Shown here: positions 16,618 to 63,097 of the stretch, in pieces
Layout: each line of letters begins with the position of its first letter
Numbering within the stretch: the stretch's first letter is position 1
NCBI GenBank assembly: GCA_003252295.1
Contig: QKEV01000017.1
Coordinates: forward strand, 100,488 to 164,487
Origin: a bacterium
Lineage (GTDB): Bacteria > Patescibacteriota > Minisyncoccia > Phycocordibacterales > UBA12088
DNA length: 64,000 nucleotides
Reading direction: 5' to 3'
The notes under the pieces: model-generated
Database searches by the model: none
Told to the model about the DNA's origin: nothing
What the model saw: only the letters and a program-made list of their open reading frames with translations
Position numbers and translations under genes: made by a program

Positions 16618-16640
16618 CAATTTGATCACATTACAAACCT

Positions 16641-18776: not shown

Positions 18777-18778
18777 GT

Positions 18779-19918: not shown

Positions 19919-20004
19919 CACTTTGTATTGTATAAAAAACTCAGTACTGCAGGGCAGTCTGTAGTAAACTATACCTACGGCAGGGTAGAGTACCCAATTA
20001 AAGT

Positions 20005-20439: not shown

Positions 20440-20446
20440 GAACTAT

Positions 20447-21109
20447 ATGCCTCAAGGAACAAACAAAGGAAAACCAAGTCAAGATTTTGTACCTATCGAA
20501 CAGGTGCGTGATGGTATTTTAGTACTGAAAGATGGTTCTATTCGTGCTGTTCTCATGGCCTCATCAATAAATATTGTTTTAAAAAGTGCAGATGAACAAG
20601 CAGCTATTCTTGGGCAATTTGAAAGTTTTTTAAATTCTCTTGATTTCTCGTTACAGATATTTATCCAATCACGTGAACTTGATATACGACCATACCTTAC
20701 TCTGCTTGAAAATCAGTTAGCTATACAGCAATCAGAACTTATGAAGATACAGGTACGAGAATATATTGAGTTTATCAAAAACTTCATAGAAGGTTCCAGT
20801 ATTATGACAAAGGGTTTCTATGTAGTGATTCCTTATTCAGCTCCTTCACTTGAAGTAAAAGCAACAACTGGTGGTATTTCGGCACTCTTCACCTCAAAAG
20901 AGGCGACAAACGAGCTTTCTCTTGAACTCTTTGAAGAGTACCGCTCACAGGTTGAGCAGAGAATCTCTGTGGTTACTCACGGACTTGCAAGGACTGGTGT
21001 ACATGTTGCCCAGCTTGGCACTGAAGAGGTGATAGAATTATTTTATAGAATGTTTAATATTGGTGAACTTGATAAACCAATGTCACTCACTAATATAACA
21101 ACTAGCTAA
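20447..21109 (+). CDS. Hypothetical protein; resembles a VirB4 N-terminal domain (possible split or paralogous VirB4 N-domain)
   Basis: PIEQVRDGILVLKDGSIRAVLMASSINIVLKSADEQAAILGQFESFLNSL matches the pattern of VirB4/TraC N-termini. The start was chosen at the internal Met with AGGA 9 nt upstream. The ORF track starts at 20381. Confidence 0.4.
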   Translation: MPQGTNKGKPSQDFVPIEQVRDGILVLKDGSIRAVLMASSINIVLKSADEQAAILGQFESFLNSLDFSLQIFIQSRELDIRPYLTLLENQLAIQQSELMKIQVREYIEFIKNFIEGSSIMTKGFYVVIPYSAPSLEVKATTGGISALFTSKEATNELSLELFEEYRSQVEQRISVVTHGLARTGVHVAQLGTEEVIELFYRMFNIGELDKPMSLTNITTS

Positions 21110-21115
21110 TGTAGT

Positions 21116-22942
21116 ATGGGATTGTTTTCATTTCACAAAAAAGACGAACTAGGTGAGGATTTCGATACTGGATCTGTTGTTCCTGAAGACCTATACGATA
21201 TCAGCAACCTTGAACTTAAAGATGTTCTTGCTCCATCAGCATTGCAGATCACTCCTCGTGAACTCAATCTTGGTGAACAGGTTGCACGAATGTTCTTTAT
21301 CATCTCGTTTCCACGGTACCTCACAGAAAACTGGTTTTCTCCTATCATCAATCTTGAAAAGGTTTTTGATGTTTCTATCTTCATACACCCTATTGATACT
21401 GCTCCAGTACTTAAGAAATTCCAAAAAAAGGTTGCTGAAGTGCAAAGCCAGATACATGAACGAGAGTCAAAAGGTATGGTACGTGACCCGAAACTTGATG
21501 CTGCTTACGAGAACCTTGAAGAACTGCGTGACTCATTACAGCAGGCAGAACAGAGACTTTTTGATGTTGGTGTATACATATCAGTATATGCAAAAACAAA
21601 AGAAGAGCTCGATAAAGCAGAAGATCATGTAAAAAGCATGCTCGAGTCACAACTCATTTACCTCAAACCTGCACTCTTTCAACAAGACCAAGGATATCGA
21701 AGTATCCTTCCTCTCTGTACCGACGAACTCTTTGTTCACAGCAAACTAAACAGTTCTCCACTCTCTTCGATCTTTCCTTTTATATCATTCGACCTCACTG
21801 CAGAAAACGGTATATTGTACGGTATAAACATGCACAACAGCTCGCTTGTGCTCTTCGACCGATACTCAATGGAAAACTACAACTCGGTACTCTTTGCAAA
21901 ATCTGGTTCTGGTAAAAGTTACTGTACAAAACTGGAGATACTCCGTTCACTCATGTTTGATACTGAGGTTATTGTTATTGATCCTGAACGTGAGTACGAG
22001 TATATGGCAAGTGCCACAGGTGGTCGGTACTTCAATATTTCACTTTCTTCAGAGCATCACATTAATCCTTTTGATCTTCCTCCAGTTCATGAAGACGAAA
22101 GTCCTGCAGATATACTACGTCAGAACATTATTACTTTGGTAGGACTCTTCCGAATCATCCTTGGAGGACTCACACCGGAAGAGGATTCACTTATTGATAG
22201 GGCTATTACTGAAACCTATGCGCTCAAAGACATAACCGGTCATAGTGATTTTACCAACCACACACCACCACTCCTTTCTGACTTTGAACTCGTACTGAGT
22301 GGTATGGAAGGAAGTGAGTCACTACTCTTACGTCTTGCCAAGTACACACGTGGTACATGGGCAGGGTTCATCAACAAACCAACAAACGTTGATATTAACA
22401 AAAAGTTTGTTGTGTTTTCAGTGCGAGACATGGAAGAAGACCTCAAACCTGCTGCTATGTATATAGTCACCAACTACATATGGACTGCTGTACGTCGTGA
22501 ACTCAAAAAACGACTTTTGGTGGTAGATGAGGCGTGGTTCATGATGAAAACAGATGATACAGCGGGCTTTCTCTATAGTGTTGCAAAACGTGGACGTAAG
22601 TACTTCCTTGGTCTCGCAACCATCACCCAAGACGTTGATGACTTCCTCAAATCACCGTATGGAGTACCTATTCTACAAAACTCATCTATACAGATACTCC
22701 TAAAACAATCACCAACTGCAATGGATAGGGTACAGGAAACATTCCATCTCACTGATGAGGAGAAGTATCTCCTCCTTGAGTCACAAGTAGGGGAAGGTAT
22801 CTTCTTTGCAGGTAGTAAACATGTTGCAATCAAAGTAATCGCATCATATACAGAAGACCAGATTATTACCTCTGACCCATCACAACTTTTAGCCATCAAA
22901 AAAGAACAAGAGAACTTGGGGGGTGGTAGTGCTACAATGTAA
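21116..22942 (+). CDS. VirB4/TrbE/PrgJ-family type IV secretion ATPase
   Basis: Walker A (LFAKSGSGKSYCTKLEI), Walker B (LLVVDEAWFMM), and a conserved C-terminal region (GRKYFLGLATITQDVDDF). 608 aa. Confidence 0.8.
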   Translation: MGLFSFHKKDELGEDFDTGSVVPEDLYDISNLELKDVLAPSALQITPRELNLGEQVARMFFIISFPRYLTENWFSPIINLEKVFDVSIFIHPIDTAPVLKKFQKKVAEVQSQIHERESKGMVRDPKLDAAYENLEELRDSLQQAEQRLFDVGVYISVYAKTKEELDKAEDHVKSMLESQLIYLKPALFQQDQGYRSILPLCTDELFVHSKLNSSPLSSIFPFISFDLTAENGILYGINMHNSSLVLFDRYSMENYNSVLFAKSGSGKSYCTKLEILRSLMFDTEVIVIDPEREYEYMASATGGRYFNISLSSEHHINPFDLPPVHEDESPADILRQNIITLVGLFRIILGGLTPEEDSLIDRAITETYALKDITGHSDFTNHTPPLLSDFELVLSGMEGSESLLLRLAKYTRGTWAGFINKPTNVDINKKFVVFSVRDMEEDLKPAAMYIVTNYIWTAVRRELKKRLLVVDEAWFMMKTDDTAGFLYSVAKRGRKYFLGLATITQDVDDFLKSPYGVPILQNSSIQILLKQSPTAMDRVQETFHLTDEEKYLLLESQVGEGIFFAGSKHVAIKVIASYTEDQIITSDPSQLLAIKKEQENLGGGSATM

Positions 22943-22944
22943 CC

Positions 22945-23565
22945 ATGCCAAGAGAGCAAGGAAAAAAGTATAGGGTATCAAAAAAAGAAGGGCGTTTGAT
23001 GATTTTTGTTGGTGTACTGTTTGACCTTACACCTATACTCCTTGTGGTTTTAGCTGTTGTTGTGATTGTTATGCTTGGAGGTGACATAATTGGCGGCGCT
23101 CAACATTTACAGCAAGCCCAGGATACGAGCGGTTTTTGGAAAAGCACTTGGAATCCTTTCAGTGGTTTTTACAGAGCGTACCACAATATAGTTGGTGACG
23201 CTAAAATCGTTGGTGGTGTTGTTGGCGGTGGACTTGTTGGTATATTTTTGGGTCCTGTTATCTACACACTTGGTTCTTGGGTTAGCACTTTCTTTGCATA
23301 TATATTTTTTACCATTTGGTTTTTATTCCGAGGCGTCTTTATTTGGTCGTTCACTTCGCCAAGTAGATTGGCAATAACGACAACCACTTTAGTTATTGAG
23401 AACATTCCTGTTGTTGACCTGTTACCAGGAACCACATTCATGGTTTGGCGCCATATCAAGAAATCAAGGACAGAAGATGACAAAAAACACAATGAAAATA
23501 TTGCTAGTTTGAATGCCGTAGCAGGCAGAAGTATCCCTCGTTACATGAAGGCACAAACCGTATAG
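22945..23565 (+). CDS. Polytopic membrane protein (hypothetical), translationally coupled to VirB4
   Basis: At least 4 hydrophobic helices. The start is 3 nt after the VirB4 stop. Confidence 0.4.
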   Translation: MPREQGKKYRVSKKEGRLMIFVGVLFDLTPILLVVLAVVVIVMLGGDIIGGAQHLQQAQDTSGFWKSTWNPFSGFYRAYHNIVGDAKIVGGVVGGGLVGIFLGPVIYTLGSWVSTFFAYIFFTIWFLFRGVFIWSFTSPSRLAITTTTLVIENIPVVDLLPGTTFMVWRHIKKSRTEDDKKHNENIASLNAVAGRSIPRYMKAQTV

Positions 23566-23617
23566 GTTATCCTCAACTCAGAAAAACAGAGCTAACCATA
23601 TACGGTATACTTACAGT

Positions 23618-24679
23618 ATGTATATGACATTATCTAAAAAAACATTTGTTTCCGCTCTTGTTTTTTTTACATCAATGCTTGTTGTTTTTTTTGTGTTTCA
23701 ACAAACATCATTCGCGCAAAGCGTTGAGAAAGGTTCTCTTGTTTTTTCTCCTGAGTATCCAAGTCCTGGTGAAAATGTAACAGTAAAACTTGATGCATAT
23801 AGTGTAGATTTTGATACAGCACTGGTAACATGGAAAGTAAATGGTGAAGTTGTTCAGCAGTCTTATTCAGAAAAAACATATATTTTTAAAGCAGGTCCTG
23901 CTGGTACAAAATACACAGTAAGTGTATCTGTTAAAGATGGGGAAGGGAGAACGGTATTTAAGGAAGCCAGTGTTGTGGTCAGTGATATTAACATTGTCTG
24001 GGAGGGAAGGACATACACACCACCGTTCTACAAAGGACGTGCGTTATACTCACCAGGTGCAGAAATTGCTATACAAGTACTACCCACAATAACTAAAAGT
24101 AATGGAACCCTCTACGCCACTGACGAGCTTTCATATGCATGGTTTGTAAATGACTCAAACGTTGCTTCAGAGAGAGGAAAAGGTAAACATTCTGTGGTTC
24201 TTTTAGGCACTAATCCACAACAACCTCTCAAGATATACCTAGAGATCAAAGACCCAGCAGGGAAGGTACGTGCATCAAGAAAATTTGTCATCCCTACTTC
24301 ACAACCTACACTCATGCTCTATGAAAGCAGTCCTTATGTTGGTGTTCGTTATGATGTTGCCATTGGAACAATATTAAGTGTATACAATACAGGCGACGAA
24401 GCCTCAAATATGTCTATTGTTGCAGAACCGTATTTTATGAGTGCAGGAAGGAGAGACGATGCAACACTTGAGTATGATTGGCGTATTGGAGACTCGAAGA
24501 AGGATTCTGCAGGAACACTTACTCTTGGGTCTGAAGGGTCAGGAACTGGTTCTACAAACCTCAGTGTAACTATTGATAGTAGAGACTACTGGTTGCAAAG
24601 TGTACGTAAAGATATAACTGTTCAATATGGAAGTATAAGTAATTGGGCACTCCAAAGTAGTAACACAGAAGCATTATGA
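23618..24679 (+). CDS. Secreted hypothetical protein
   Basis: Signal peptide (FVSALVFFTSMLVVFFVFQQTSFAQS). 353 aa. Confidence 0.45.
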   Translation: MYMTLSKKTFVSALVFFTSMLVVFFVFQQTSFAQSVEKGSLVFSPEYPSPGENVTVKLDAYSVDFDTALVTWKVNGEVVQQSYSEKTYIFKAGPAGTKYTVSVSVKDGEGRTVFKEASVVVSDINIVWEGRTYTPPFYKGRALYSPGAEIAIQVLPTITKSNGTLYATDELSYAWFVNDSNVASERGKGKHSVVLLGTNPQQPLKIYLEIKDPAGKVRASRKFVIPTSQPTLMLYESSPYVGVRYDVAIGTILSVYNTGDEASNMSIVAEPYFMSAGRRDDATLEYDWRIGDSKKDSAGTLTLGSEGSGTGSTNLSVTIDSRDYWLQSVRKDITVQYGSISNWALQSSNTEAL

Positions 24680-25056
24680 TTCAACAAATAGTAAAAAAGG
24701 GTGGTTTGATTGGTATGACACTACTCACACCATTAGTAAGTTTTGCTAATGGTAGTGGTAATGACTATCACACACTCACAGAAGGTGGTATACCGCTTGT
24801 TGATACAGCAACCATGGATATGAGTGGTCTTTTAAATGCACTGTTTGCTATTTCTGTCGTTGTTGCTGCAATTCTTGCAGTTATTATGCTGGCGATAGGT
24901 GGTTTTCGTTACATGACAAGTGAATCTGTATTCAATATGGGTAATGCGCGCGAACAAATCTCGAACGCTATCATTGGCTTACTCATTGTCCTCGTTTCTG
25001 TCCTTATTCTCTACACTATTAATCCTGATATAGTTCAACTCAAATTGTTTAATTAG
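24676..25056 (+). CDS. Small pilin-like membrane protein (VirB2/TrbC-like T4SS pilin candidate)
   Basis: 126 aa. Signal-like N-terminus, two hydrophobic helices (LLNALFAISVVVAAILAVIMLAIGG; AIIGLLIVLVSVLILYTI) separated by a short polar loop. ATGA overlap with the upstream gene. Confidence 0.35.
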   Translation: MIQQIVKKGGLIGMTLLTPLVSFANGSGNDYHTLTEGGIPLVDTATMDMSGLLNALFAISVVVAAILAVIMLAIGGFRYMTSESVFNMGNAREQISNAIIGLLIVLVSVLILYTINPDIVQLKLFN

Positions 25057-30337: not shown

Positions 30338-31696
30338 ATGACTCAAGTCTTAGATACGAAAAAGGTATGGGAGGATGCCTTGGTTGATATTGAACTGTCT
30401 GTATCTAGGGCTAACTTCAGTACCTGGTTTAAAGGTACTCATGTAGTAAAGATTGAAGATGGTATTGTTTTCATTGGTGTACCAAGTCAATTCTATAAAG
30501 ACTGGCTTGCTGACAAGCATCATAAGACGATCCTTCGAGCACTCAGGAACGCTGAACCAAATACTCGGGGAGTAGAGTATATTATTGCAAGAGAAGACAA
30601 AAAGAAACCAAAGCATGAGAAAAAAATACTACGTTCTTCTGCAGTAAACGAACTTCCTCTCGACCAGCACTACATCAACAGAGCTGATAACCTCAATCCC
30701 CGCTATACGTTTGAATCATACGTAGTGGGGCCTTTTAATGAGCTTGCGTTTGCCGCTTCTCAGGCAGTAGTAAAAGAGCCAGGAATTACCTACAACCCAC
30801 TTTTTATATACGGGAATACAGGGTGTGGTAAAACACACCTCATCCAAGCAGTAGGTAATCACCTGAAGAAGTTAAATAATACAAGGAAGATCTTCTATAC
30901 CACCTCAGAGCGTTTTGGTACCGATATTGTTACTGCTATCCAACAGAATAATATTCAGAACGTGAAAGAGAAGTACCGTCAGTACGATGTACTCATGATG
31001 GATGATGTACAGTTCCTCTCAGGAAAAGATAAGTTGCAGGAAGAACTCTTCCATATCTTCAACTCACTCTATGAGAACAATAAGCAAATACTCTTCTCAT
31101 CTGATAGACACCCTAGCTACATCAGTGACCTGACCGATAGGCTTCGTTCTCGTTTTGGACAGGGAATGATAATAGATGTGACCATACCAGACCATGAATC
31201 ACGAGTAGCTATCCTTAAAACAAAAGCAGCTCATCACAACTTCCTATTAGGAGATGAATTAGCACAAATAATTGCAAACGAAGTAGAGGGTAATATTCGT
31301 GATCTTGAAGGAATTTTGAACAGGGTAATTTGTCAAACACAACTGAAAGGAAAATCACTTGATATTAATGATGTTAAACAGATCGTAAAGAACAATCTTC
31401 GTCCACAAAAGAATGTTTCTGTAAAAGACCTTGTTGAACGAGTGAGTCGTTACTATGATGTTGAATCTACCGTGATATATGAAAAAACTCGTAAAAAGGA
31501 GGTGGTTAAGCCTCGTCAGATCATCATGTACCTCATGCGCCAAGACTTCAATATCTCATATCCAACCATTGGACAGAAACTTGGTGGAAGAGATCACACC
31601 ACTGTCATCCATTCATGTGAGAAAATAAAACGCGAACTTACTGACGACTCAATACTGCAAAGGGAAGTGGAGGAGATTCGCGCAATGTTGAAATAG
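30338..31696 (+). CDS. dnaA: Chromosomal replication initiator protein DnaA
   Basis: AAA+ Walker A (LFIYGNTGCGKTHLIQAVGN), domain IV HTH (IGQKLGGRDHTTVIHSCEKI). 452 aa. Confidence 0.95.
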   Translation: MTQVLDTKKVWEDALVDIELSVSRANFSTWFKGTHVVKIEDGIVFIGVPSQFYKDWLADKHHKTILRALRNAEPNTRGVEYIIAREDKKKPKHEKKILRSSAVNELPLDQHYINRADNLNPRYTFESYVVGPFNELAFAASQAVVKEPGITYNPLFIYGNTGCGKTHLIQAVGNHLKKLNNTRKIFYTTSERFGTDIVTAIQQNNIQNVKEKYRQYDVLMMDDVQFLSGKDKLQEELFHIFNSLYENNKQILFSSDRHPSYISDLTDRLRSRFGQGMIIDVTIPDHESRVAILKTKAAHHNFLLGDELAQIIANEVEGNIRDLEGILNRVICQTQLKGKSLDINDVKQIVKNNLRPQKNVSVKDLVERVSRYYDVESTVIYEKTRKKEVVKPRQIIMYLMRQDFNISYPTIGQKLGGRDHTTVIHSCEKIKRELTDDSILQREVEEIRAMLK

Positions 31697-31940
31697 TGTG
31701 GAGTAGTCTGCGTTTGTTCTGTGGAAAACATAGGGAAAGAACCAGTGAGTACTTGTGAAAACTTTTGTTTATAAGTGAGAATTGATTATACCGACTCTTC
31801 TTATAAACAAAGTAATCCACATTTTACAGAAGAAGTTCAAGTGAAAAATATAGTGTAAAGTAAAACTTTTTTTCACCTTTCCACATATCTACAGGACTAA
31901 TAATAGTAAAGTAAAAAAAATTAAAAAATAATTAACTACT
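31697..31940. promoter_or_regulatory. Candidate oriC: dnaA-dnaN intergenic region with DnaA boxes and an AT-rich DNA-unwinding-element-like tract
   Basis: tgtggaaaa (31720-31728), taatccaca (31813-31821), ctttccaca (31877-31885). Then aataatagtaaagtaaaaaaaattaaaaaataattaa (31899-31935), which is more than 90% AT. Confidence 0.5.
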
Positions 31941-33041
31941 ATGGAGTGTACAGTAAACCGTGAAGAACTTCTTGAAGCAGTACTACAAACAGAGAAGTTA
32001 ACCGTAAAGAATCACACACTTCCTGTCCTCTCTTGTATTCATGTTGAAGTAAGTGGTGACAAGTTACTCCTCTCAGCAACAAACCTAGAAGTCGGTATAC
32101 GTTTTTCAATAACTATTTCAGATGGTAAGGATGGTGTTGTAGCTGTATCAGGTAGTGTGCTTTCTCATGTTATTTCATCTCTTCCAAGTGGTACGAGTGT
32201 TTCTCTTTCCACACAAGAAGGATATCTTGTTGTTGCTAACAGTGAAGGAAGTTCAAAGATTGCACTTCAGGAAGCTGAAGATTTTCCTGTGCTCCCAGAA
32301 GTTGATGATGGTGATTCCTTTAATCTTCCAGCAAAGGAATTGCATGCAGCTATATCTGCTGTGGTGTACTGTGCAAGCACTTCAACCATCAAACCTGAAT
32401 TATCAAGTGTGTTTATTCACCCAGATGGTGCTGTACTAATTGCAGCAGCAACAGATTCATTTCGTTTAGCGGAGAAGAGGATTCCACTCAAAGAGACAAT
32501 AGAAATAGAACCTTTTCTTATCCCCAGTAAATCAACAGGGAGCTTACTTAAGGTACTAGAACGTGCTGATGGTATGGTAAAAATGGTATCAAATAAACAT
32601 CAGTTATCAGTTACTGTTGATACTGTGTATATAACACTCCGTCTCGTTGCTGGAACCTTTCCAGACTATACTCAAATCATACCAAAAGAGTTTGTTACAG
32701 AGGCAACTATGTTGACTCACGATTTTGAGAGGGTCTTGAGGAAGGCTACAGTCTTCTCTGACCAGTTTAATCAGACAGTGGTAACCATATCACCAAAAGA
32801 AAAAAAATGTTTCGTATACACGAAAAATGAAAGCGTAGGAGAAACAAAAGATAGTATACAAGCAGCACTCACAGGAGAAAGTTTGGAAATAAGTTTTAAT
32901 CAAAAGTACCTGGTTGATGCTCTCCATTCTGTCTCAACAGACAGTATCACTATTCAGTTTGCAGGACAGTCTCAGCCAGCAATAGTATCTCCTGTTGGGG
33001 ATAGTGGTTTTATTTATCTGGTAATGCCTATGAATAGGTAG
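31941..33041 (+). CDS. dnaN: DNA polymerase III beta sliding clamp
   Basis: 366 aa, three-domain beta-clamp pattern. Located immediately after dnaA. Confidence 0.9.
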   Translation: MECTVNREELLEAVLQTEKLTVKNHTLPVLSCIHVEVSGDKLLLSATNLEVGIRFSITISDGKDGVVAVSGSVLSHVISSLPSGTSVSLSTQEGYLVVANSEGSSKIALQEAEDFPVLPEVDDGDSFNLPAKELHAAISAVVYCASTSTIKPELSSVFIHPDGAVLIAAATDSFRLAEKRIPLKETIEIEPFLIPSKSTGSLLKVLERADGMVKMVSNKHQLSVTVDTVYITLRLVAGTFPDYTQIIPKEFVTEATMLTHDFERVLRKATVFSDQFNQTVVTISPKEKKCFVYTKNESVGETKDSIQAALTGESLEISFNQKYLVDALHSVSTDSITIQFAGQSQPAIVSPVGDSGFIYLVMPMNR

Positions 33042-45650: not shown

Positions 45651-46454
45651 ATGGAAGAACAAGAAAACAATGTAAACTCTCTGCAAACTGAAAAGCAAAA
45701 CGCTTTCAATACTGTGACACCACTATCAAGAACTTTGGCACTGGTGCTTTTTGTTGCACTGCCGTTTGTCGGGTTCTGGTTGGGGTATAGATTTGCACCA
45801 GAGAAGGTGGTGGAGATAGAAAAACTTACCGAGAAAACTGATGTTGTTCAAAATGAAGAAAATATAGTTACGTATGAAGAATGTGCTGGTATGGGTGGTG
45901 CAATTAATAATCTTACTAATGACTGTTGGGTAAATGGCGAGATAATTAAAACACCTTACAGCCGTAAACTTGATGAGAATTCTGATACACACAAAAATCT
46001 TTTGACGTTAGATGATGTTTTTGCTCTTATAGAGCTCGCACAAGTAACAGGTGATTATTCTTTATGTGAAAAAACCGAAACCCATCGAAAACGCTGTATA
46101 GCAGAAGTCGAGCTTCAACAAACAATACTACATAACTATGGTTGCAATGATAGTACCTCATGTAACAATCCAGAGTGTTACGCATATATGGGCTGTGGAG
46201 GTGGAGGTGGTGATGATGCTGTAGGGTGTTCAGTCCAAGAATACTGTGCTGTTGATCAATCTTGGTTGTGTGGAAAGACGGGTGGAGTGGGAGGAACAAA
46301 AGATGGTTTTAATTGTGTTTGTCCTGAGGGAAGCAATTTTATAAAAGGGTATGGTTGTGCTAAATGTAGTGATTTTGCACATGAAGAAACACGTTCATAT
46401 TGTGAAAATGGTGTTAGTTATTTCCAGTATCTATATGCAGAAGGAGGGGAGTAG
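45651..46454 (+). CDS. Membrane-anchored Cys/Gly-rich extracellular protein (hypothetical)
   Basis: N-terminal TM (LALVLFVALPFVGFWLGY). C-terminal ~110 aa with ~20 Cys and GGGGG. Confidence 0.45.
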   Translation: MEEQENNVNSLQTEKQNAFNTVTPLSRTLALVLFVALPFVGFWLGYRFAPEKVVEIEKLTEKTDVVQNEENIVTYEECAGMGGAINNLTNDCWVNGEIIKTPYSRKLDENSDTHKNLLTLDDVFALIELAQVTGDYSLCEKTETHRKRCIAEVELQQTILHNYGCNDSTSCNNPECYAYMGCGGGGGDDAVGCSVQEYCAVDQSWLCGKTGGVGGTKDGFNCVCPEGSNFIKGYGCAKCSDFAHEETRSYCENGVSYFQYLYAEGGE

Positions 46455-46462
46455 TTTCCAAT

Positions 46463-46513
46463 TCTAACCAATAGGGATTACTTACAACAACTGTCTGAGC
46501 AGATGCCGTTTGT
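46463..46513 (+). repeat. 93-bp intergenic repeat family, copy A (3' portion only)
   Basis: ttctaaccaatagggattacttacaacaactgtctgagcagatgccgtttgta matches the 3' half of copies C and D. Confidence 0.7.
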
Positions 46514-47310
46514 ACAGTTCCTACACAAAACAGAAATTTAATTGTGATATTATTTTATGTATGGTTAATAAATTCGTATTAAAAGCACCCTATTCACTAT
46601 ACTTGTTTTATGCAGTTTTACTTGGAGCACTTGCTGTGTTTCTTTTTTATGTTGGGGCAATGGAGGGGTTTTATGCTGTCGTGACTTTTGTAATATTTCT
46701 GTTTTTTTTTACAAGTAATGTACAAGTGAAGGTTACAGACACTACACTTGTAATACAAAATAAGTACCGCAGACAGAAAATAATACAATTCAATAACATT
46801 TCCTTGATCAGTCAACTTATGGGAGTGTCGTCACCAGACTATATTCCCATACAAGATGTACCTCAGGGTTTAGCTGTAACGTTAAAAAGTGGTGAAATTG
46901 TTACTATATCTCTCACAATGTACGACATAAAGGACATACATACATTTCTCTCATTACTATCTGGTTTATTACCAGAAAACAGTTTTGATGCAAATATTAA
47001 GAAGGATATTGTTTCAAAAACATACATAAAGGCAAGCAAAAGGGCTGTTTTTGGTATACTGGTGTCAGTGGTTGGGATTGTAGGTTTCTTTATAAGTGGT
47101 AATAAATTAGGTTATTTTGGGAGGAAGATTGTATTTAACTCACTAGATGATGTTATTGCCATAGTTGTTCCCTTGTCTTTTTTGGTTCTGTCGTTTTTTG
47201 GGATTGGTTACATGGTGGAAGGTAAAAAAACAGGAGTTAGACTTATAGAATATTTTCTACTCACTTTTGTCATTTTTGGTCTATTAGGGTGGATGTTTAT
47301 TTGGGATTAA
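46510..47310 (+). CDS. Polytopic membrane protein (hypothetical)
   Basis: 266 aa with at least 5 hydrophobic helices. Confidence 0.45.
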   Translation: MYSSYTKQKFNCDIILCMVNKFVLKAPYSLYLFYAVLLGALAVFLFYVGAMEGFYAVVTFVIFLFFFTSNVQVKVTDTTLVIQNKYRRQKIIQFNNISLISQLMGVSSPDYIPIQDVPQGLAVTLKSGEIVTISLTMYDIKDIHTFLSLLSGLLPENSFDANIKKDIVSKTYIKASKRAVFGILVSVVGIVGFFISGNKLGYFGRKIVFNSLDDVIAIVVPLSFLVLSFFGIGYMVEGKKTGVRLIEYFLLTFVIFGLLGWMFIWD

Positions 47311-47424
47311 TTTGTCCCATTTTCGAAGCCCTTTTGGAGTATGAAGCGGTACTTATAAAAAACTCTGAACACTCCAAACGCCAAAAGAACGCGGAGAATG
47401 GTGGGTTCATATTAAGCAATATAA

Positions 47425-47450
47425 TGTCCCCCGAGCAGGGCGTTATTATA
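47425..47450 (+). repeat. 93-bp repeat family, copy B, 5' segment
   Basis: tgtcccccgagcagggcgttattata is identical to the 5' end of copies C and D. Confidence 0.7.
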
Positions 47451-47525
47451 TGTAACCATATAAACTCCTCAACTCGAAAATACTCAAATCAAAAACTTGA
47501 GTATTTCTCTCGTCCTACGTCGTTT

Positions 47526-47594
47526 ATAACCCTTCTAACCAACAGAGATTACCTACAACAACTGAGTGAACAGATGTTGTTTATTAGGTTTTTG
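47526..47594 (+). repeat. 93-bp repeat family, copy B, 3' segment
   Basis: ataacccttctaaccaacagagattacctacaacaactgagtgaacagatgttgtttattaggtttttg. It is separated from the 5' segment by a 75-bp insertion that carries a 9-bp hairpin. Confidence 0.7.
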
Positions 47595-47630
47595 AATAAA
47601 GAAAGTATAAACAGGTGCTAAAATATAGCA

Positions 47631-48143
47631 ATGAAAGATCAAAGTCATTACAAAAATTTACCAAGAAAACGAGTTCATGTAGTAGCGCTTATTTTCAATG
47701 AAGATGGAAAAATTTTATTAGTAAAGCCAAGTTACAAAGATAAATGGTCACTTCCTGGAGGGTCAGTTGATTTAGATGAATCACCTCGTAATGGTTGTAT
47801 AAGAGAAGTTCAAGAGGAAACAGGTTTGGTTGTTACTGATGCAAAGTTTCTTTGTGTACAATATGTAACTGATACTGAAAAAGGAGATGCACTCTTCTTT
47901 ATGTTTGATTGTGGTGTTGTAAATAACAGTCAATTAATAAGTGTTTCAAAAGAAACTAAAGAGATAGAACAGTGTCAGTTTGTTGATATAGATGAAGTTG
48001 GGTCATATGTACCCGAAGGTGTCGCTACACGCATCACAGCAGGGCTTGATGCTAAAAGTGATACAAGTAAGGGGTATGTTGAGAGGAGATTTGTGAAAAG
48101 AATAGATGAAAAAACTTACACATCTGACATCTTTTCGTCATGA
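47631..48143 (+). CDS. NUDIX hydrolase
   Basis: Nudix box GGSVDLDESPRNGCIREVQEETGL. Confidence 0.7.
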   Translation: MKDQSHYKNLPRKRVHVVALIFNEDGKILLVKPSYKDKWSLPGGSVDLDESPRNGCIREVQEETGLVVTDAKFLCVQYVTDTEKGDALFFMFDCGVVNNSQLISVSKETKEIEQCQFVDIDEVGSYVPEGVATRITAGLDAKSDTSKGYVERRFVKRIDEKTYTSDIFSS

Positions 48144-48240
48144 AATGAGAAAATTCTATGAAATGGAAGTATGGTATTCTTATAGAAATACAAGCCTGAT
48201 TGAAATTTGTGTTTAGTGGTTTAATGCATATTTTGTAAAT

Positions 48241-48603
48241 ATGAGATTTTGTAAGAAAAGTATAATTATTTTGCTAGTATCTTCATTTATACTTGGTGTA
48301 ATTCATGAAAGAATACAGAATGAATTTTACATGACTGATGCCATTTTTATATTTTCATTATTTTCCCCTGGTATTATTACTGGTATTATTTTGCTTTTGC
48401 TAAATTATTTACCGATAAAGAAAAGAATGTATGTATTTTTTATATCAGAAATAATATTTGGATTGTCGTATTTTATTATTGGAATGTCTGGCGTTGGTAT
48501 GGACGGATATGGTGGGGAGATTCTTTTTTTAATGATGGCAGTTGCAATGATTGTTTATATTCCCTTTGCACTCTATATTTCAAAATCAATCAGAATAATT
48601 TAA
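48241..48603 (+). CDS. Small polytopic membrane protein (hypothetical)
   Basis: 120 aa with 3-4 hydrophobic helices. AT-rich. Confidence 0.35.
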   Translation: MRFCKKSIIILLVSSFILGVIHERIQNEFYMTDAIFIFSLFSPGIITGIILLLLNYLPIKKRMYVFFISEIIFGLSYFIIGMSGVGMDGYGGEILFLMMAVAMIVYIPFALYISKSIRII

Positions 48604-48643
48604 ATGATAAAAAACACCTTGATGGTATTTTTTATTTTTTCAT

Positions 48644-48736
48644 TGTCCCCCGAGCAGGGCGTTATTATAACCTTGTTAACTAATAGAAATTACCTACAAC
48701 AACTGAATGAACAGATGTTATTTGTGAGGTTTTTGG
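48644..48736 (+). repeat. 93-bp repeat family, copy C (full length)
   Basis: tgtcccccgagcagggcgttattataaccttgttaactaatagaaattacctacaacaactgaatgaacagatgttatttgtgaggtttttgg. It lies between convergent genes. Confidence 0.75.
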
Positions 48737-48757
48737 AAAGAAATATGAGAGTAAAAT

Positions 48758-49675
48758 CTATCTCATGAGTATCTCAAAGAAATCATGAACAAACTCCGCT
48801 TTTGCAATTTTTTTCACGACCTTCACATTGTTTCTTTTTTCACCCCATAGTCTTCTGTCAGCTACGGTCATGCCACGGGTAAGGTCACTGCTTGTTTCAA
48901 TTTGAATATCCATCGGTTGCGTTTTGTATGCTGAAGGGTTTATAAGGTAGTACGCTGCAAGAGGGTCATACATCAGCGCACCTGAAGTTTTTTCAAAAGT
49001 TTGTATACCTTGTATGTACGAACTCATCATACTTTTAATTGGTTTGTACAAGTTGGTTTTCTTAAGCACATCAAAATCTTGAAGTGTAAAAGATATGTCG
49101 TTGCATACATCAAGTGGAACAAGAATTTTTTTAACACTTGATGTAAAGACAATGTCCGCTGCTTCCGGATCGACAAAGATGTTAAATTCAGCAACCCTGT
49201 TTTTATTTCCAGGAACTTCGATTGCTCCACCCATCATCACAACTTGTTTAATGAGAGAAGGCAATTCTGGATCGAGTATGAACGCCTTGGCAACATTTGT
49301 TTGCGGTCCTATGGTAACCAAAGTAACCTCGTGCGGGTTTGTGCGAACAATTTCGATAATTTTCTCTGGTGCGTTATTTGACAGTGCTTCATGCTTTGTG
49401 ATTTTTGCACCATCAAGACCCTTTTCCCCATGCACATCTGCAAGCACAAGCTCTCTTTGAAGAGGTTTGTTTGCACCTGAGAAAATCGGTGTGATACTGT
49501 TGATCAGATCGAGGGTATACCTCGCATTATTGGTTGCGTTCTCAACAGTGCAGTTTCCTGCGACAGTTGTTATTCCTTTGATGTCAAACATGTCGGACTT
49601 TTCCAGTAGTAGTAGCGCGAGCATATCATCGTGTCCCGGGTCGGTGTCAATGATAACCTTAGGTTTATTTTTCAT
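48758..49675 (-). CDS. Inosine-uridine-preferring nucleoside hydrolase family protein
   Basis: N-terminal DTDPGHDD motif (VIIDTDPGHDDMLALLLL). 305 aa. Confidence 0.8.
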   Translation of the reverse strand: MKNKPKVIIDTDPGHDDMLALLLLEKSDMFDIKGITTVAGNCTVENATNNARYTLDLINSITPIFSGANKPLQRELVLADVHGEKGLDGAKITKHEALSNNAPEKIIEIVRTNPHEVTLVTIGPQTNVAKAFILDPELPSLIKQVVMMGGAIEVPGNKNRVAEFNIFVDPEAADIVFTSSVKKILVPLDVCNDISFTLQDFDVLKKTNLYKPIKSMMSSYIQGIQTFEKTSGALMYDPLAAYYLINPSAYKTQPMDIQIETSSDLTRGMTVADRRLWGEKRNNVKVVKKIAKAEFVHDFFEILMR

Positions 49676-50330
49676 GGTTTTTTAGATAGGTTGTTAATGT
49701 TTCTATTGATGGAATGGTTGGATAATTTGTATTACTTGTTGGATGTATATGCAACACATTCATGTTGCAGGCATGGGCAGGAAGTATATCTGTTTCTAAA
49801 GAGTCTCCCACCATTAAAATTTCAGATGGTTGAAGTTTTGTTTGCTCTATTATCTTTTTATACACATCAGACGTGCCACCTTTGGGCATCTTTTTACCTC
49901 TTTCCCAACCGATAAAGATGGAAAACAGTTGTGTTGCTACTTGAGCAGAGGACAGGAGCTTTTTTGCCTGAGATGTTGGACCGTCTGTTATGACCCCAAG
50001 AGAGTACCCTTTGAATTTGAGTGTGTTGAGTAGATTATGAACATGTGACATTTTCTGAATGAATGGATCAGTTTCAAGTGAGCAGAGAGCGTCATGCCAC
50101 ACAGTGTTTCCTTTGCTAAGTGATTCTAGGGCAACTTCACCCCTCCCATTGTATTGCTGTCTATATTCATCTGCGATGTTCTTTGCTTCACCCATAGTGA
50201 CACCGCGTAATGTACTGATAGTTTGCTCTAACAGTTTTGGATACTGCTTGTAGTACAAAGCAGCTTCATTTCCGTATATGAGTGTTTGATCTACATCAAA
50301 CAAGATCAATTTAATTTTTTTCATAGACAT
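49665..50330 (-). CDS. HAD-superfamily hydrolase
   Basis: Motif I DxDxT (LILFDVDQTLI) and a C-terminal motif (MVGDSLETD). Confidence 0.65.
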   Translation of the reverse strand: MSMKKIKLILFDVDQTLIYGNEAALYYKQYPKLLEQTISTLRGVTMGEAKNIADEYRQQYNGRGEVALESLSKGNTVWHDALCSLETDPFIQKMSHVHNLLNTLKFKGYSLGVITDGPTSQAKKLLSSAQVATQLFSIFIGWERGKKMPKGGTSDVYKKIIEQTKLQPSEILMVGDSLETDILPAHACNMNVLHIHPTSNTNYPTIPSIETLTTYLKNHEK

Positions 50331-50525
50331 ATTTTTGTAATAAAAAAACCCTGTGAGGGGTTCTAAGTTTGCTTTGCACTTGAGTGATAATTATTTACAC
50401 AACAAAGTAGCCCCCTCTTTTCTCAGAAGATGGTTGTTGTGCCAACTTGTTGTTACTACTGTTCTGTTGTCCATATTCAAAAAGTACCATCAAGTGGTAT
50501 GTTTGTCAAAATAGGAACTTTGAAT

Positions 50526-50759
50526 TCGAATCCTGTTCAGGTGTACGTCAAAAGCCCCTGTATGTGGGGCTTTCTCAGTGTCGTCACAAGTTGCTAAGTG
50601 TTTTGTTTGTTACAAATTACTAGGAATCTCACTGCTCGCTCCTTTCAGTCACTGCGCTCTGAGAACCCACGGTTCTCAGCGTTCGTTATCACTCACTGCT
50701 CTCCTACACGGGAGGACACCCAGTCCTCACGACCCCACCTCTGGTTCGAATCCTAGTGG
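50526..50759 (+). repeat. Repeat element R1 (~234 bp): structured, tRNA 3'-end-like terminus; paralogue of R2
   Basis: Aligns with 51541..51722. Shared blocks are tcgaatcctgttc, aaaagcccct..ggggcttt, ttactaggaatctcactgctcgct, cactgcgctc, tcctacac and ggttcgaatcctagtgg. It also contains covarying hairpins. Confidence 0.6.
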
Positions 50760-50966
50760 TAATCTATATATTTACTTGTCGTCACCCGTCACTAACTATA
50801 ATTGTTCACTTTGTTCCAATTCTAGTAAGTGCGCTTGACCACGGCTCGACTGTTTTGTGTCACAGTAAGTAGTGACACAAAACATGTCTCCGCCTCGGAC
50901 ACGAGCACGTAAGCAAAACTATTTGCTTACTAAAAAAGCCACACTAGTGTGTGACTTTTTTACTCA

Positions 50967-51059
50967 TGTCCCCCGAGCAGGGCGTTATTATAACCTTGTT
51001 GACTAACAGGGATTACTTACAACAACTGTCTGAGCAGATGCCGTTTGTGAGGTTTTTGG
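50967..51059 (+). repeat. 93-bp repeat family, copy D (full length)
   Basis: tgtcccccgagcagggcgttattataaccttgttgactaacagggattacttacaacaactgtctgagcagatgccgtttgtgaggtttttgg. Confidence 0.75.
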
Positions 51060-51097
51060 GGAGGGAAAAGTAAACCTTTTCATGTTAAAATTTTCGT

Positions 51098-51538
51098 ATG
51101 GATATTTATGAAACAATTGGAATAATAATTGCCCCCATCATCATAATAGTTTCTGTTCTACTTATCACTATGTGGAGCAGATTTTTTGGTAACAATCCCA
51201 AATGGAGTATAAGAGCTAAAAGCATGAAGAAGCTTGCTCAAAAACTTGGGTGTCAGTTTACTTTTGACACAAATACATTGTCTGAAAGGTTGTGGAAGAC
51301 GCCGAGAAAAATAAATGTAATAACTGGTGAATACAATGGTAAACAAATTGAAATTTACGATTACAACACTGTTACAAATTATTCATTTGCATTGGGACAG
51401 GATCCAAAACGATTTACCATCATTAATGGTGCGTACTATAAGCAAATAAAAGCGGAAACTATTGAAGAAATACTGAATGGTACATTGGACAAAGAACGAT
51501 TAAACAAACTAAGGAAAGACAATTCAAACGTTGAATAA
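51098..51538 (+). CDS. Hypothetical protein with an N-terminal TM helix
   Basis: 146 aa. IIAPIIIIVSVLLITMW. Confidence 0.4.
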   Translation: MDIYETIGIIIAPIIIIVSVLLITMWSRFFGNNPKWSIRAKSMKKLAQKLGCQFTFDTNTLSERLWKTPRKINVITGEYNGKQIEIYDYNTVTNYSFALGQDPKRFTIINGAYYKQIKAETIEEILNGTLDKERLNKLRKDNSNVE

Positions 51539-51540
51539 CA

Positions 51541-51722
51541 TCGAAATCCTGTTCGAGTGTATTTCAAAAGCCCCTAAGTATGGGGTTTTGGTGTTTACTA
51601 GGAATCTCACTGCTCGCTCGTTACACTCACTGCGCTCACGAAACCCACGGTTTCGTGTACTTCCTACACAGGGAACCAGCAGGTTCCCTGACACCCTCCG
51701 CTGTTCGAATCCTAGTGGGCGG
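51541..51722 (+). repeat. Repeat element R2 (~182 bp), paralogue of R1; its 3' 20 nt equal the tRNA-Lys T-loop/acceptor sequence in inverted orientation
   Basis: See R1. Hairpins cacgaaacc-cac-ggtttcgtg (51638-51657) and cagggaacc-agca-ggttccctg (51669-51690). Confidence 0.6.
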
Positions 51723-51763
51723 ACAGCCAAACAAAAAACAGCACTAAGTGCTGTTTCTGGCTG

Positions 51764-51836
51764 TCCGCCCACTAGGATTCGAACCTAGGACCCGCGGCTT
51801 AAAAGGCCGTTGCTCTACCAGCTGAGCTATGGGCGG
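51764..51836 (-). tRNA. tRNA-Lys (anticodon UUU)
   Basis: The reverse complement folds as a cloverleaf: acceptor CCGCCCA/TGGGCGG, D-arm GCTC-AGCTGGTA-GAGC, anticodon loop CTTTTAA, T-arm CTAGG-TTCGAAT-CCTAG, discriminator A. No encoded CCA. Confidence 0.85.
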
Positions 51837-52004
51837 ATAATGGTCATTGTACCTCCATCAGCAAAGCTATGGGTAGATGTACAAAAACGTAAAACGTTTG
51901 CTCAAGAATACTACGACAAATGACTGTTTTTGTCTACCAATGTATTGCGTGTAGATATAAGTAACGGCCTGTTCGAACTGAACAGACCGTTAAAAAACAT
52001 GAAC

Positions 52005-62827: not shown

Positions 62828-63025
62828 AAGAGCGTGCTCTCGGCAGGAACGCCTCTCCCTTTAGGTCGAGATCAACGTTTACATACCCACAGGGCACAAG
62901 AACCTGACGAGTCAGGTTGTCGCTCCGCTCTGTGTAAACGTTAGTCCTACGGTTCGATTCCTGCCTGAGAACCTGTGTATAGCAAAAGACATCCACAGTA
63001 AAACCGGGATGTCTTTTGCTATATG

Positions 63026-63097
63026 TGCTCTCGGCAGGAATCGAACCTGCATTACGACTTCCGCAAAGTCGCGTCCTATCCGTTGAACGACGAGAGC
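63026..63097 (-). tRNA. tRNA-Arg with apparent anticodon GCG (as read from sequence; unusual for bacteria)
   Basis: Reverse complement: acceptor GCTCTCG/CGAGAGC, D-arm GTTC-AACGGATA-GGAC, anticodon stem CGACT/AGTCG with loop TTGCGGA, T-arm GCAGG-TTCGATT-CCTGC, discriminator A. Confidence 0.75.

Follow-up and report, generated by a model that had tools for sequence, protein, structure and literature searches.

What are R1 and R2, two similar, hairpin-rich stretches of DNA that lie beside a tRNA-Lys gene in a Patescibacteria genome and carry sequence resembling the 3' end of that tRNA? A first-pass annotation of the 64-kb stretch of DNA analysed here (the window) had left three options: a structured non-coding RNA, MITE-like elements that target tRNA T loops, or att scars. 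Our analysis retained the structure and the tie to the tRNA T loop, whereas the tRNA-like termini proved not to be intrinsic to the element, being copied from the adjoining tRNA (Lys, Ile, Ile, Val or Ala), and conservation and covariation of the core across genomes made inert scars unlikely. R1 and R2 are members of what seems to be an undescribed family of small DNA elements, non-coding and rich in hairpins, behind tRNA genes of the ultra-small Patescibacteria/CPR bacteria. The answer we favour, at about even odds (a probability of roughly 0.5), is that they are small insertion elements, neither coding nor autonomous, which occupy the 3' ends of tRNA genes in Patescibacteria.

R1 and R2 are structured, non-coding paralogues

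The window contains two R copies, 68% alike. They are real paralogues, as their shared blocks had indicated to the first-pass annotation: the 25-nt block TTACTAGGAATCTCACTGCTCGCTC occurs exactly twice in the window (50617-50641 and 51595-51619), against a shuffle expectation of 0. The sequence GTTCGAATCCTAGTGG occurs three times, at 50744, at 51703 and on the minus strand within tRNA-Lys (51769-51784), and three matches were reached in 0/100 shuffles. The copies have a common tRNA-like 3' terminus, with a length of 16 rather than 17 nt because R2 reads TGTTCG where R1 reads GGTTCG. The two 9-bp hairpins together differ between the copies at nine compensatory pairs. In H1, CTGAGAACC/GGTTCTCAG of R1 corresponds to CACGAAACC/GGTTTCGTG of R2, with both sides changed at four pairs, and in H2 both sides are changed at five; the compensatory changes described earlier thus stand, but pairing is not perfect throughout, as H2 of R1 contains one G.A mismatch. 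The complementary ends that had been noticed, ACTAGGAATC and GAATCCTAGT, also exist, but bound an inner core (R1 50616-50763; R2 51590-51729) and not the intervals as originally drawn.

Ahead of each copy stands a 5' module, a TTCGAATCCTGTTC-like sequence with a AAAAGCCCC/GGGG hairpin, that is 80% identical between R1 and R2 over 45 nt (Table 1). At the opposite end, R2 closes with the inverted copy of the tRNA-Lys 3' part that had been proposed, and the inverted repeat is perfect: its 27-nt arms (51703-51729 and 51758-51784) are 100% complementary around the tRNA-Lys terminator hairpin, and R2 arm, hairpin and tRNA-Lys 3' end together form a near-palindrome of 82 bp, close to the ~90 bp first estimated. 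G+C content is low in the region at 46-50 kb beside the locus.

No conserved reading frame was found in the R copies, and no ORF lies inside any unit. A small protein was considered and rejected, since the one frame open in four copies is shifted from copy to copy and the hairpin changes would mean radical amino-acid replacements. No sigma-70-like promoter was found upstream of R1 or R2, and good terminators set the pair apart from both neighbouring genes, the flanking terminators being bidirectional. The R2 5' module probably terminates the 146-aa ORF that lies between R1 and R2 (51098-51538).

Table 1. Features of the R1/R2 locus and of the tRNA-Arg element, in window coordinates.
Feature	Position	Strand	Remarks
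R1 5' module, a_x: T-loop-like pseudo tRNA 3'-end fragment TTCGAATCCTGTTCAGGTGTA	50525..50545	+	No match to tRNA-Lys; paralogous to 51541-51561
R1 5' module, T_x: terminator-like hairpin (AAAAGCCCC-loop-GGGGCTTT)	50550..50573	.	
R1 5' (distal) arm ATTACTAGGA	50616..50625	+	Antisense tRNA-Lys 3'-end copy, decayed; pairs with 3' arm
R1 core, 5' part	50629..50703	+	Three TCACTGC(K)C(K)CTC repeats (50629, 50649, 50693) around H1 (50659-50679)
R1 hairpin H2, CGGGAGGAC-ACCCA-GTCCTCACG, then C-rich tail GACCCCACCTCT	50709..50731	+	One G.A mismatch
R1 3' (proximal-type) arm GGTTCGAATCCTAGTGG	50743..50763	+	Sense copy of tRNA-Lys T loop/3' end, 17 nt; orphan, no adjoining tRNA
R2 5' module	51541..51589	+	a_x fragment 51541-51561, T_x hairpin 51566-51589; overlaps stop codon of 146-aa ORF
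R2 5' (distal) arm GGTGTTTACTAGGA	51590..51603	+	Decayed direct repeat of antisense tRNA-Lys 3' end GTCCGCCCACTAGGA; four C-to-T changes, giving T.G pairs with 3' arm
R2 core	51607..51690	+	TCACTGC repeats at 51607 and 51627; H1 51637-51657; TCCTACAC; H2 51669-51690
R2 3' (proximal) arm	51703..51729	+	Perfect inverted tRNA-Lys copy, 27 nt: G53 to 3' end plus 6 nt of trailer
Terminator hairpin between R2 and tRNA-Lys	51736..51756	.	T-run TTTTTTGTTT on minus strand, hence terminates tRNA-Lys
tRNA-Lys(UUU)	51763..51836	-	Source gene of the 3' part copied in the arms
Element of the same layout with unrelated core, behind tRNA-Arg(GCG) (63025-63097, -)	62834..62975	+	16-nt direct repeat GTGCTCTCGGCAGGAA at 62834-62849 and again at 63025-63040; structured core; inverted arm GGTTCGATTCCTGCC from 62951, then 17-bp hairpin 62978-63023

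Relatives lie behind other Patescibacteria tRNA genes

A metagenome scan and a search with a spurious ORF yielded four further members (L081, L082, L083 and L085), each on a separate Patescibacteria contig and immediately behind the 3' end of its own tRNA gene (Ile, Ile, Val or Ala), to which it runs convergent. A covariance model, the check that the first-pass annotation had suggested, scores them at 92-168 bits and found no other match in ~0.56 Mb searched, mostly Patescibacteria and DPANN loci. The family is known from six copies only; the exact 25-mer has no occurrence across 185,579 species genomes, and a six-frame concatenated peptide query for further spurious ORFs returned none. Covariation persisted once these copies were added, in keeping with the selected secondary structure originally claimed: of 32 core pairs, 96.9% are paired and 16 are doubly changed, a result reached in 0/500 shuffles, while slid controls gave 33-41% pairing. 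R therefore has the covariation-supported secondary structure that marks a structured non-coding RNA, and its unpaired blocks are invariant in sequence across genomes of differing G+C content.

Core identity is 83% between R1 and L083 and 78% between R2 and L081, above the 68% between R1 and R2, so R1 and R2 are not mutual nearest relatives, and separate insertions fit better than duplication in situ. The a_x-T_x module and the decayed TTACTAGGA arm are common to R1 and R2, yet their cores come from different sublineages; we count this sharing against the insertion-element reading.

The arms copy the adjoining tRNA

Read on the strand opposite the tRNA, a unit consists, in order, of distal arm, core, proximal arm, hairpin or terminator, and intact tRNA. 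In the distal arm the tRNA gene is repeated directly, T loop through 3' end, with 1-8 nt of trailer; the core (~125-150 nt) holds two to four TCACTGC repeats, two 9-bp hairpins and a C-rich tail; and in the proximal arm that tRNA segment recurs inverted, starting exactly at G53 of the T loop. Arm sequence follows the identity of the adjoining tRNA while the core stays conserved, which bears out the suspected specific tie to the T loop and 3' end. The direct repeats span 16-22 nt and always start inside the T loop (tRNA positions 54-60). The repeat of L083, whose T stem is distinct (CAAGA), matches at 22/22 positions including 8 nt of trailer, that of L082 covers 19 nt, and L081 has a tandem repeat of 69 nt; tandem units occur. 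As in att-flanked elements that target tRNA genes, a direct repeat bounds the insert and the tRNA is regenerated, with an empty site at tRNA-Arg(GCG). The closing stems of 6-20 bp, like the arms of CTX-type IMEX, have the sequence of their target, here the T-stem/acceptor segment of the tRNA gene. Read in the tRNA-sense direction, a terminator-like hairpin or T-run closes most units.

Under a strict criterion (≤1 mismatch in 17 nt), 8 of the 35 tRNAs from Patescibacteria loci not selected for an element were followed, 100-190 nt downstream, by a direct repeat of their 3' end, against 0/13 in other taxa. Sister cores with the same layout comprise the tRNA-Arg type, a Ser/Arg 'S' type and the L003-2, L008 and L015 types. 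Homology of R to these was rejected: both covariance models miss the sister cores, which are therefore treated as separate families that share the layout only.

Could the arms have arisen without any insertion? Template switching at the terminator quasi-palindrome could copy the tRNA 3' end into the inverted arm, with gene conversion or closing-stem selection making the other arm resemble a direct repeat and the core being an old resident. The perfect R2 inverted repeat, which includes trailer and is centred on the terminator hairpin, fits such local DNA dynamics, as do L082 and the tRNA-Arg of the window, where arm, terminator and tRNA form one long imperfect palindrome. However, L083, L082, the tRNA-Arg element of the window and the elements of the relatives combine a perfect direct repeat with an inverted arm that has diverged or extends over just ~10 nt, which excludes the inverted arm as the source of the direct repeat; moreover, filled and empty sites show gain and loss of whole units. 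We regard this explanation as very unlikely.

A second possibility is that R1 and R2 are inert scars, CIME-like attL/attR remnants of larger tRNA-borne islands or prophages that have mostly been deleted since, in which case the two copies would mark successive integrations at tRNA-Lys and the 146-aa ORF would be leftover cargo. Such scars would leave direct repeats that extend from the T loop to the end of the tRNA, as are seen here; arrays of tRNA 3'-end copies in L081 and at the L008 tRNA-Thr, cargo-like genes next to R (the 146-aa ORF and, in L085, an NYN gene) and the low G+C beside the locus also agree with them. Random deletion, however, would not yield the same 125-150-nt core end to end at five tRNAs in five genomes, hairpins would not persist through 16 compensatory pairs, and the 25-nt block is identical between copies just 68% alike; an integrase remnant was found nowhere nearby. 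Scars thus appear improbable.

Filled and empty sites point to insertion of whole units

Orthologous tRNA genes differ in whether they bear a unit. At tRNA-Arg(GCG), L087 is filled with a 147-bp insert and L093 is empty, and the terminator found immediately behind the tRNA in L093 lies, in L087, behind the distal repeat. L003 has a unit at tRNA-Ser(CGA) where L087 has none, and tRNA-Ala(GGC) has an R member in L085 and none in L087. In this last pair the extra DNA also includes the NYN gene, and the tRNA-proximal terminator is orthologous to the empty-site terminator, which together are a misfit with simple T-loop insertion. The R family itself yielded neither an excised form nor an empty site at strain level among its six copies. 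L087 also carries an identical 77-nt core at both tRNA-Ser(GCT) and tRNA-Arg(GCG), with arms re-matched to each tRNA, including the lone T-loop difference ATTCGAAC versus AATCGAAC.

The main rival to the insertion-element reading is a non-coding RNA with a host function. R and the sister families would then be functional structured RNAs on tRNA transcription units, either trailer/spacer co-transcripts or antisense-strand RNAs, whose closing stem mimics the acceptor/T-stem minihelix of the adjoining tRNA; they might act as a processing signal, as a decoy for tRNA-3'-end enzymes or toxins, or as an insulator that sequesters the inverted arm from tRNA folding. The tRNA-Ser(GCT) element speaks for such a role: three species (L003, L087 and L093) retain it at the orthologous site, where it shows compensatory changes next to a spacer that has diverged, and, as the 6-20 nt before tRNA-Glu downstream leave no space for a promoter, its co-transcription with tRNA-Glu in the tRNA-sense direction is almost certain. 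This looks like selection in place, for a function at the host or RNA level. The strong covariation of the two hairpins, the invariant unpaired blocks and the terminator-like ends in the tRNA-sense direction agree with it. Wobble pairs in R helices on the plus strand (6 G.T versus 2 A.C) also lean towards RNA, although the S family shows no difference and the count is not decisive for strand. Presence and absence at orthologous tRNAs and one core at different tRNAs nevertheless require a DNA insertion process, whatever the later use, and an RNA fold needs no perfect 17-22-nt direct repeats with trailer bases. In addition, R1 and R2 have terminators on both gene sides and no promoter-like site upstream, Rfam 15 gives no match, and the evidence for the active strand is weak and contradictory. 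We consider a host-function RNA a serious but somewhat unlikely account.

No enzyme or known family accounts for the elements

Pfam searches found no integrase, transposase or reverse transcriptase (RT) in the 64-kb window, nor did gene tables list one beside the relatives' elements. No tyrosine or serine integrase is encoded within an element, as it would be in an integrative element; the flanks of 0/6 copies hold an RT or a DEDD/serine recombinase gene, which would mark a retron msr/msd or an IS110 bridge RNA; and an autonomous relative with the same ends was not found. Rfam 15 cmscan, at the gathering score and at E ≤ 10, returned only two tRNAs and chance hairpin matches on the palindrome, and the sister elements likewise had no match (tmRNA, tRNA, Y RNA, group I intron, OMEGA and bridge-type RNAs). 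As cmscan matched no known family, the reservation that the elements might be permuted tmRNA pieces does not apply.

Several specific candidates were also rejected. For tmRNA, standard or permuted, ARAGORN reported none, there is no T-stem partner upstream of GTTCGAATC, and reading frames differ between copies. A phage origin was dismissed after blastn against phages matched the tRNA only and two pattern scans of viral contigs came back empty. A retron would need an RT nearby, IS200/IS605 PATEs leave no flanking repeat, and a tRNA primer-binding site is at odds with arms that hold trailer bases and lack CCA. Restriction-site (TCGA) joining fits just one of two junctions. An integron attC was rejected as no sequence fits the RYYYAAC/GTTRRRY core consensus and Pfam found no IntI in the window, and a MITE with element-specific terminal inverted repeats and a target duplication of fixed length was rejected as the arms vary with the adjoining tRNA and repeat length ranges from 16 to 22 nt. 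A group I intron has neither an Rfam match nor room in so small a core; anticodon-loop introns have been reported in the phylum (PMC13011429).

Discussion

Under the insertion-element reading, units would insert site-specifically into the T-loop/3'-end segment of a tRNA gene and regenerate the tRNA 3' end as tRNA-targeting integrases do, so that the distal repeat would be an att-type duplication. Mobilisation would occur in trans through an enzyme encoded elsewhere; as no recombinase lies nearby, we infer both this enzyme and the active form (ssDNA, dsDNA or RNA). The two arms may pair in a single-stranded form, ssDNA being likelier than RNA, and, by analogy with CTX-phage attP or integron attC, would recreate the target duplex exactly, while the hairpins and repeats would be recognised by proteins. 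R2 would be the unit now at tRNA-Lys, and R1 a second unit, of a different sublineage, that is no longer beside a tRNA. This reading demands that arms be re-aimed at a new tRNA without destroying that tRNA, which we count against it.

A more speculative extension, rather unlikely in our estimate, casts the arms as a re-programmable target mimic or guide through which one structured core (ssDNA or RNA) is re-aimed at any tRNA gene. The sense and antisense copies of the T-loop-to-3'-end segment would let an enzyme acting in trans insert the unit without harming the tRNA. The elements would then be a new class of miniature, target-templated mobile element, widespread in Patescibacteria, and some copies, such as the element in a tRNA-operon spacer, may have been domesticated as RNAs that mimic tRNA 3' ends.

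Integrases that target tRNA genes classically leave direct repeats spanning the T loop to the tRNA end, and integration sites in the tRNA T loop and 3' end were reportedly classified by Williams in 2002. R-type units share tandem accretion at the tRNA, and filled and empty sites among relatives, with tRNA-targeting integrative elements and their integrase-less derivatives (genomic islands, CIMEs and tycheposon satellites). In contrast to these, they measure just 125-190 bp without any gene, have a conserved covarying hairpin structure as their core and an extra inverted copy of the target, and let one core family serve many tRNAs with arms re-matched each time. With the attP of CTX-phage-type IMEX and with integron attC they have in common inverted arms ~100 nt apart that pair within one strand and rebuild a target-like duplex, a stem structure conserved above sequence, a target left intact, so that arrays can grow, and integration that relies (for R, putatively) on an enzyme in trans. 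They differ in having no dif-like or R''/R' (RYYYAAC/GTTRRRY) sites, in targeting a tRNA gene, in long unpaired blocks of conserved sequence, and in that their single-stranded form is presumed and any link to XerCD or IntI hypothetical.

MITEs and IS200/IS605-derived PATEs are likewise small and non-coding, with terminal inverted repeats or subterminal hairpins, families of several sublineages and presumed mobilisation in trans. In R, however, the inverted repeats reproduce the target instead of being specific to the element, the flanking repeat is tied to the T loop and varies in length (16-22 nt), and the 64 kb contain only two copies; we know of no parent IS for R. The tRNA-like domain of tmRNA, the Y RNA YrlA and mascRNA also resemble R, in that their ends pair in an acceptor-plus-T-stem-like helix beside GTTCGAATC T-loop sequence and the remainder of the molecule sits inside that helix. 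R differs from them in forming no T arm, because no 5' T-stem strand stands beside the loop, in lacking an ARAGORN or Rfam match, a CCA, a tag ORF and an rsr or smpB neighbour, and in a helix that copies the neighbouring gene, trailer bases included.

Patescibacteria genomes are tiny and contain very little non-coding DNA; even so, about one in four of their sampled tRNA genes bears a structured insert of 100-190 bp bracketed by copies of the tRNA's own end. If mobile, these inserts would be among the smallest site-specific elements known, with one core re-aimed at many targets; they would bear on how integrases and other enzymes recognise tRNA genes, and could interest builders of programmable insertion tools. 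If they are functional RNAs, they would add a new class of RNA linked to tRNAs, in a phylum whose RNA-based regulation is, to our knowledge, almost unexplored. On either reading, they explain the stray tRNA 3' fragments and palindromes that confuse the annotation of Patescibacteria genomes.

R1 and R2 are paralogous structured elements

The first-pass annotation had proposed that R1 and R2, two hairpin-rich elements near tRNA-Lys, are paralogues with compensatory hairpin changes, and our analysis bore this out with minor corrections. They share an identical 25-nt block absent from the rest of the window, and each carries two 9-bp hairpins (H1 and H2) in which nine stem pairs differ, changed on both sides. 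A 16-nt block common to both also lies, inverted, inside tRNA-Lys. The proposed inverted tRNA-Lys end of R2 held as well: its final 27 nt reproduce tRNA-Lys perfectly in inverted orientation, from G53 to the 3' end plus six trailer bases, and copy and tRNA end are arranged about the tRNA terminator hairpin. The inner cores are closed by a stem pairing ACTAGGA(ATC) with (GAA)TCCTAGT (+ strand folding z-scores −2.8 and −4.3). R1 and R2 have in common a module of T-loop-like fragment and terminator-like hairpin (a_x-T_x) preceding the core, and the same decayed arm, although the cores differ.

An imperfect 19-nt direct repeat (TGTCGTCACAAGTTGCTAA / TGTCGTCACCCGTCACTAA, 15/19) flanks the R1 core; it was equalled in only 2 of 500 shuffles and may have arisen by target duplication at a site other than a tRNA. 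A decayed copy of the tRNA-Lys 5' part (acceptor and D arm; 77% identity over 26 nt) lies 40 nt upstream of the true gene.

The elements did prove to fall outside known RNA families, as Rfam 15 gave no match to R1 or R2 at gathering score or at E ≤ 10; tmRNA was absent according to ARAGORN. We also considered a protein-coding R, for which one reading frame stays open across several copies, yet frames shift between copies and hairpin substitutions are radical, and this reading was rejected.

Features of the window discussed in the text
Feature	Position	Strand	Remark
ORFs without family match	15121–25000		run of large ORFs
TraG/VirB4-like P-loop ATPase	21116–22942
dnaA and dnaN	30338–33041
Low-G+C stretch	46000–50000		G+C 0.35–0.36
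~90-nt repeat	46473–46513, 47424–47594, 48644–48736, 50967–51059		TGTCCCCCGAGCAGGGCGTTATTATAACC..GATTACTTACAACAACTG..TTTGTGAGGTTTTTGG
R1	50526–50759
19-nt repeat around R1 core	50579–50597 / 50777–50795
R2	51541–51722
tRNA-Lys(UUU)	51763–51836	−	one of only two tRNAs in the window
Decayed tRNA-Lys 5' part	51853–51878
Second element, same layout	62834–63023		behind tRNA-Arg(GCG); core unrelated to R
tRNA-Arg(GCG)	63025–63097	−	the other of the two tRNAs

R arms are copied from the adjacent tRNA

A 20-mer from the conserved block matched two metagenome contigs (L081 and L082), searches with translations of a spurious ORF found a third relative (L083), and a covariance model recovered a fourth, more distant member (L085, GCA_021791395.1). 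In all four the element lies directly 3' of a tRNA gene, on the opposite strand; the host tRNAs are Ile(UAU-type), Ile(GAU), Val(GAC) and Ala(GGC). The conserved core comprises TCACTGC repeats, H1, TCCTCCAC, H2 and GACCCCCTTCCC. Modelled over six R copies, the structure comprises 32 pairs, of which 16 are changed on both sides; 96.9% of cells pair. This level was reached in 0 of 500 shuffles, and slid controls paired at 33–41%. Because R1 is closer to L083 (83% core identity) and R2 to L081 (78%) than R1 is to R2 (68%), two R sublineages coexist in the window's genome.

The arms are unconserved between members, each pair copying its adjacent tRNA. As distal arm, members carry the 3' segment of the tRNA gene as a direct repeat, which spans 19 nt in L082 and 22 nt in L083 (8 of them trailer bases) and belongs to a 69-nt tandem repeat in L081; the proximal arm is an inverted tRNA copy always starting at G53 of the T loop. 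The L083 tRNA has a different T stem, which its arms match; thus, the T-arm-like ends are target-derived rather than intrinsic to the element.

The layout recurs at other Patescibacteria tRNAs

In the second element of the window, a 16-nt direct repeat is followed by a structured core, then by an inverted arm (from G52/G53) and a long 17-bp hairpin (TATAGCAAAAGACATCC/GGATGTCTTTTGCTATA) that precedes tRNA-Arg; the element has no Rfam match. We scanned every tRNA in the loci examined for a direct repeat of its own 3' end, under a strict criterion that accepted no more than 1 mismatch in 17 nt. Such a repeat occurred 100–190 nt downstream of 8 of 35 tRNAs in those Patescibacteria loci that had been selected on grounds other than an element, and of 0 of 13 tRNAs in other taxa, against a chance expectation of about 1e-6 per tRNA. 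The repeat starts within the T loop (positions 54–60) in all cases, and an inverted T-loop copy ((N)ATTCGAAC) lies at the opposite core end in nearly all, being weakly recognisable at one locus (L015). The layout is general in the phylum.

At another locus (L008, 14652–14790), tRNA-Thr(UGU) is followed by two more copies of its final 13 nt including CCA (ACAGGCGGCTCCA), at +25 and +115, forming a 3'-end repeat array with short inserts.

Filled and empty sites show insertion of sister families

Gene order around these tRNAs is common to four related genomes (L003, L085, L087 and L093), and insertion is shown for the sister families, which share the layout with cores unrelated to R. At tRNA-Arg(GCG), L087 carries a 147-bp insert and the orthologous L093 site none; the terminator after the insert's distal repeat is that directly following the L093 tRNA. 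Likewise, tRNA-Ser(CGA) has an element in L003 and an empty site in L087, and at tRNA-Ala(GGC) L085 carries an R member where L087 has 35 nt; the terminator nearest the tRNA in L085 is the orthologue of the one at the empty L087 site. The Arg insert of L087 has a 77-nt core almost identical to the one at tRNA-Ser(GCT) in that genome, and the arms of the insert match tRNA-Arg, including the single T-loop base distinguishing it from tRNA-Ser(GCT). Whole units therefore come and go at tRNA 3' ends, and one core can serve different tRNAs.

Relative to L087, L085 (11497–12300) has an extra NYN-domain gene and the R member between His_Phos_1 and tRNA-Ala; the far end of this DNA bears a remnant resembling a terminator and possibly a decayed copy of the tRNA-Ala end. 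The stretch may represent a mini-island whose tRNA-proximal end is formed by R. Two near-identical assemblies (L084 10327–11017 versus L085 10324) differ by a ~690-bp AT-rich insertion exactly at the tRNA-Ser(UGA) 3' end, with a repeat of only 4 nt (GCGG), a different type of tRNA-end insertion.

Genomic setting

Besides dnaA and dnaN, the window, part of a bacterial chromosome, encodes polA, ruvABC and a Mur ligase, together with numerous ORFs that lack a family match. The nucleoside hydrolase adjoining the locus has its top relatives (52–66% identity) in Patescibacteria/CPR MAGs, and HAD-hydrolase homologues likewise indicate Patescibacteria/CPR. Judged from dnaA, dnaN and the turn in GC skew, the replication origin lies near 30 kb, so that the tRNA genes at 51.8 and 63.0 kb, right of the origin, are transcribed head-on to replication, an unusual orientation among tRNA genes.

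The low-G+C stretch (0.42–0.45 on both sides), rich in ORFs without family match, adjoins the R1/R2/tRNA-Lys locus and may have accreted at tRNA-Lys as an island. The ~90-nt repeat lies directly upstream of three ORF starts (46510, 47631 and 51098), with a further copy at 48644–48736, and could be a common promoter or 5'-UTR cassette. The ORF run around the P-loop ATPase possibly forms a cluster for type IV secretion or DNA uptake.

Proposed mechanism and role

We propose that the elements would insert site-specifically into the T-loop/3'-end segment of a tRNA gene, regenerating the tRNA, with the enzyme supplied in trans. Such insertion accords with the direct repeats, with units in tandem and with the occurrence of both filled and empty sites; domain searches and the relatives' gene tables revealed no integrase, transposase or reverse transcriptase in the 64-kb window or beside any copy. 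The element would act single-stranded and folded, its closing stem rebuilding the target duplex, which best accounts for the inverted arm and covarying hairpins; CTX-phage attP and integron attC offer parallels for such a folded form. In the window, folds with T·G pairs form on the + strand (three cases, one genome), which dnaA at 30 kb and the GC skew mark as the lagging-strand template. Among the initial readings, a MITE-like, tRNA-targeting element came closest, the interpretation being right only in part and the mechanism partly resolved.

Group I introns have been reported in anticodon loops of Patescibacteria tRNAs (PMC13011429). Our full-text literature search, of incomplete coverage, turned up the usual tRNA-linked islands and no description of R-type elements. 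R apparently represents a family not described before, one of a wider class of mini-insertions at the 3' ends of Patescibacteria tRNAs; its novelty is probable, not proven.

The tRNA-Ser(GCT) element is kept at its orthologous site in three species, with compensatory hairpin changes, and the adjoining spacer has diverged beyond alignment. As tRNA-Glu starts 6–20 nt past it, the element must be transcribed within a tRNA operon. Together, this conservation and transcription keep an RNA-level role alive for at least some copies.
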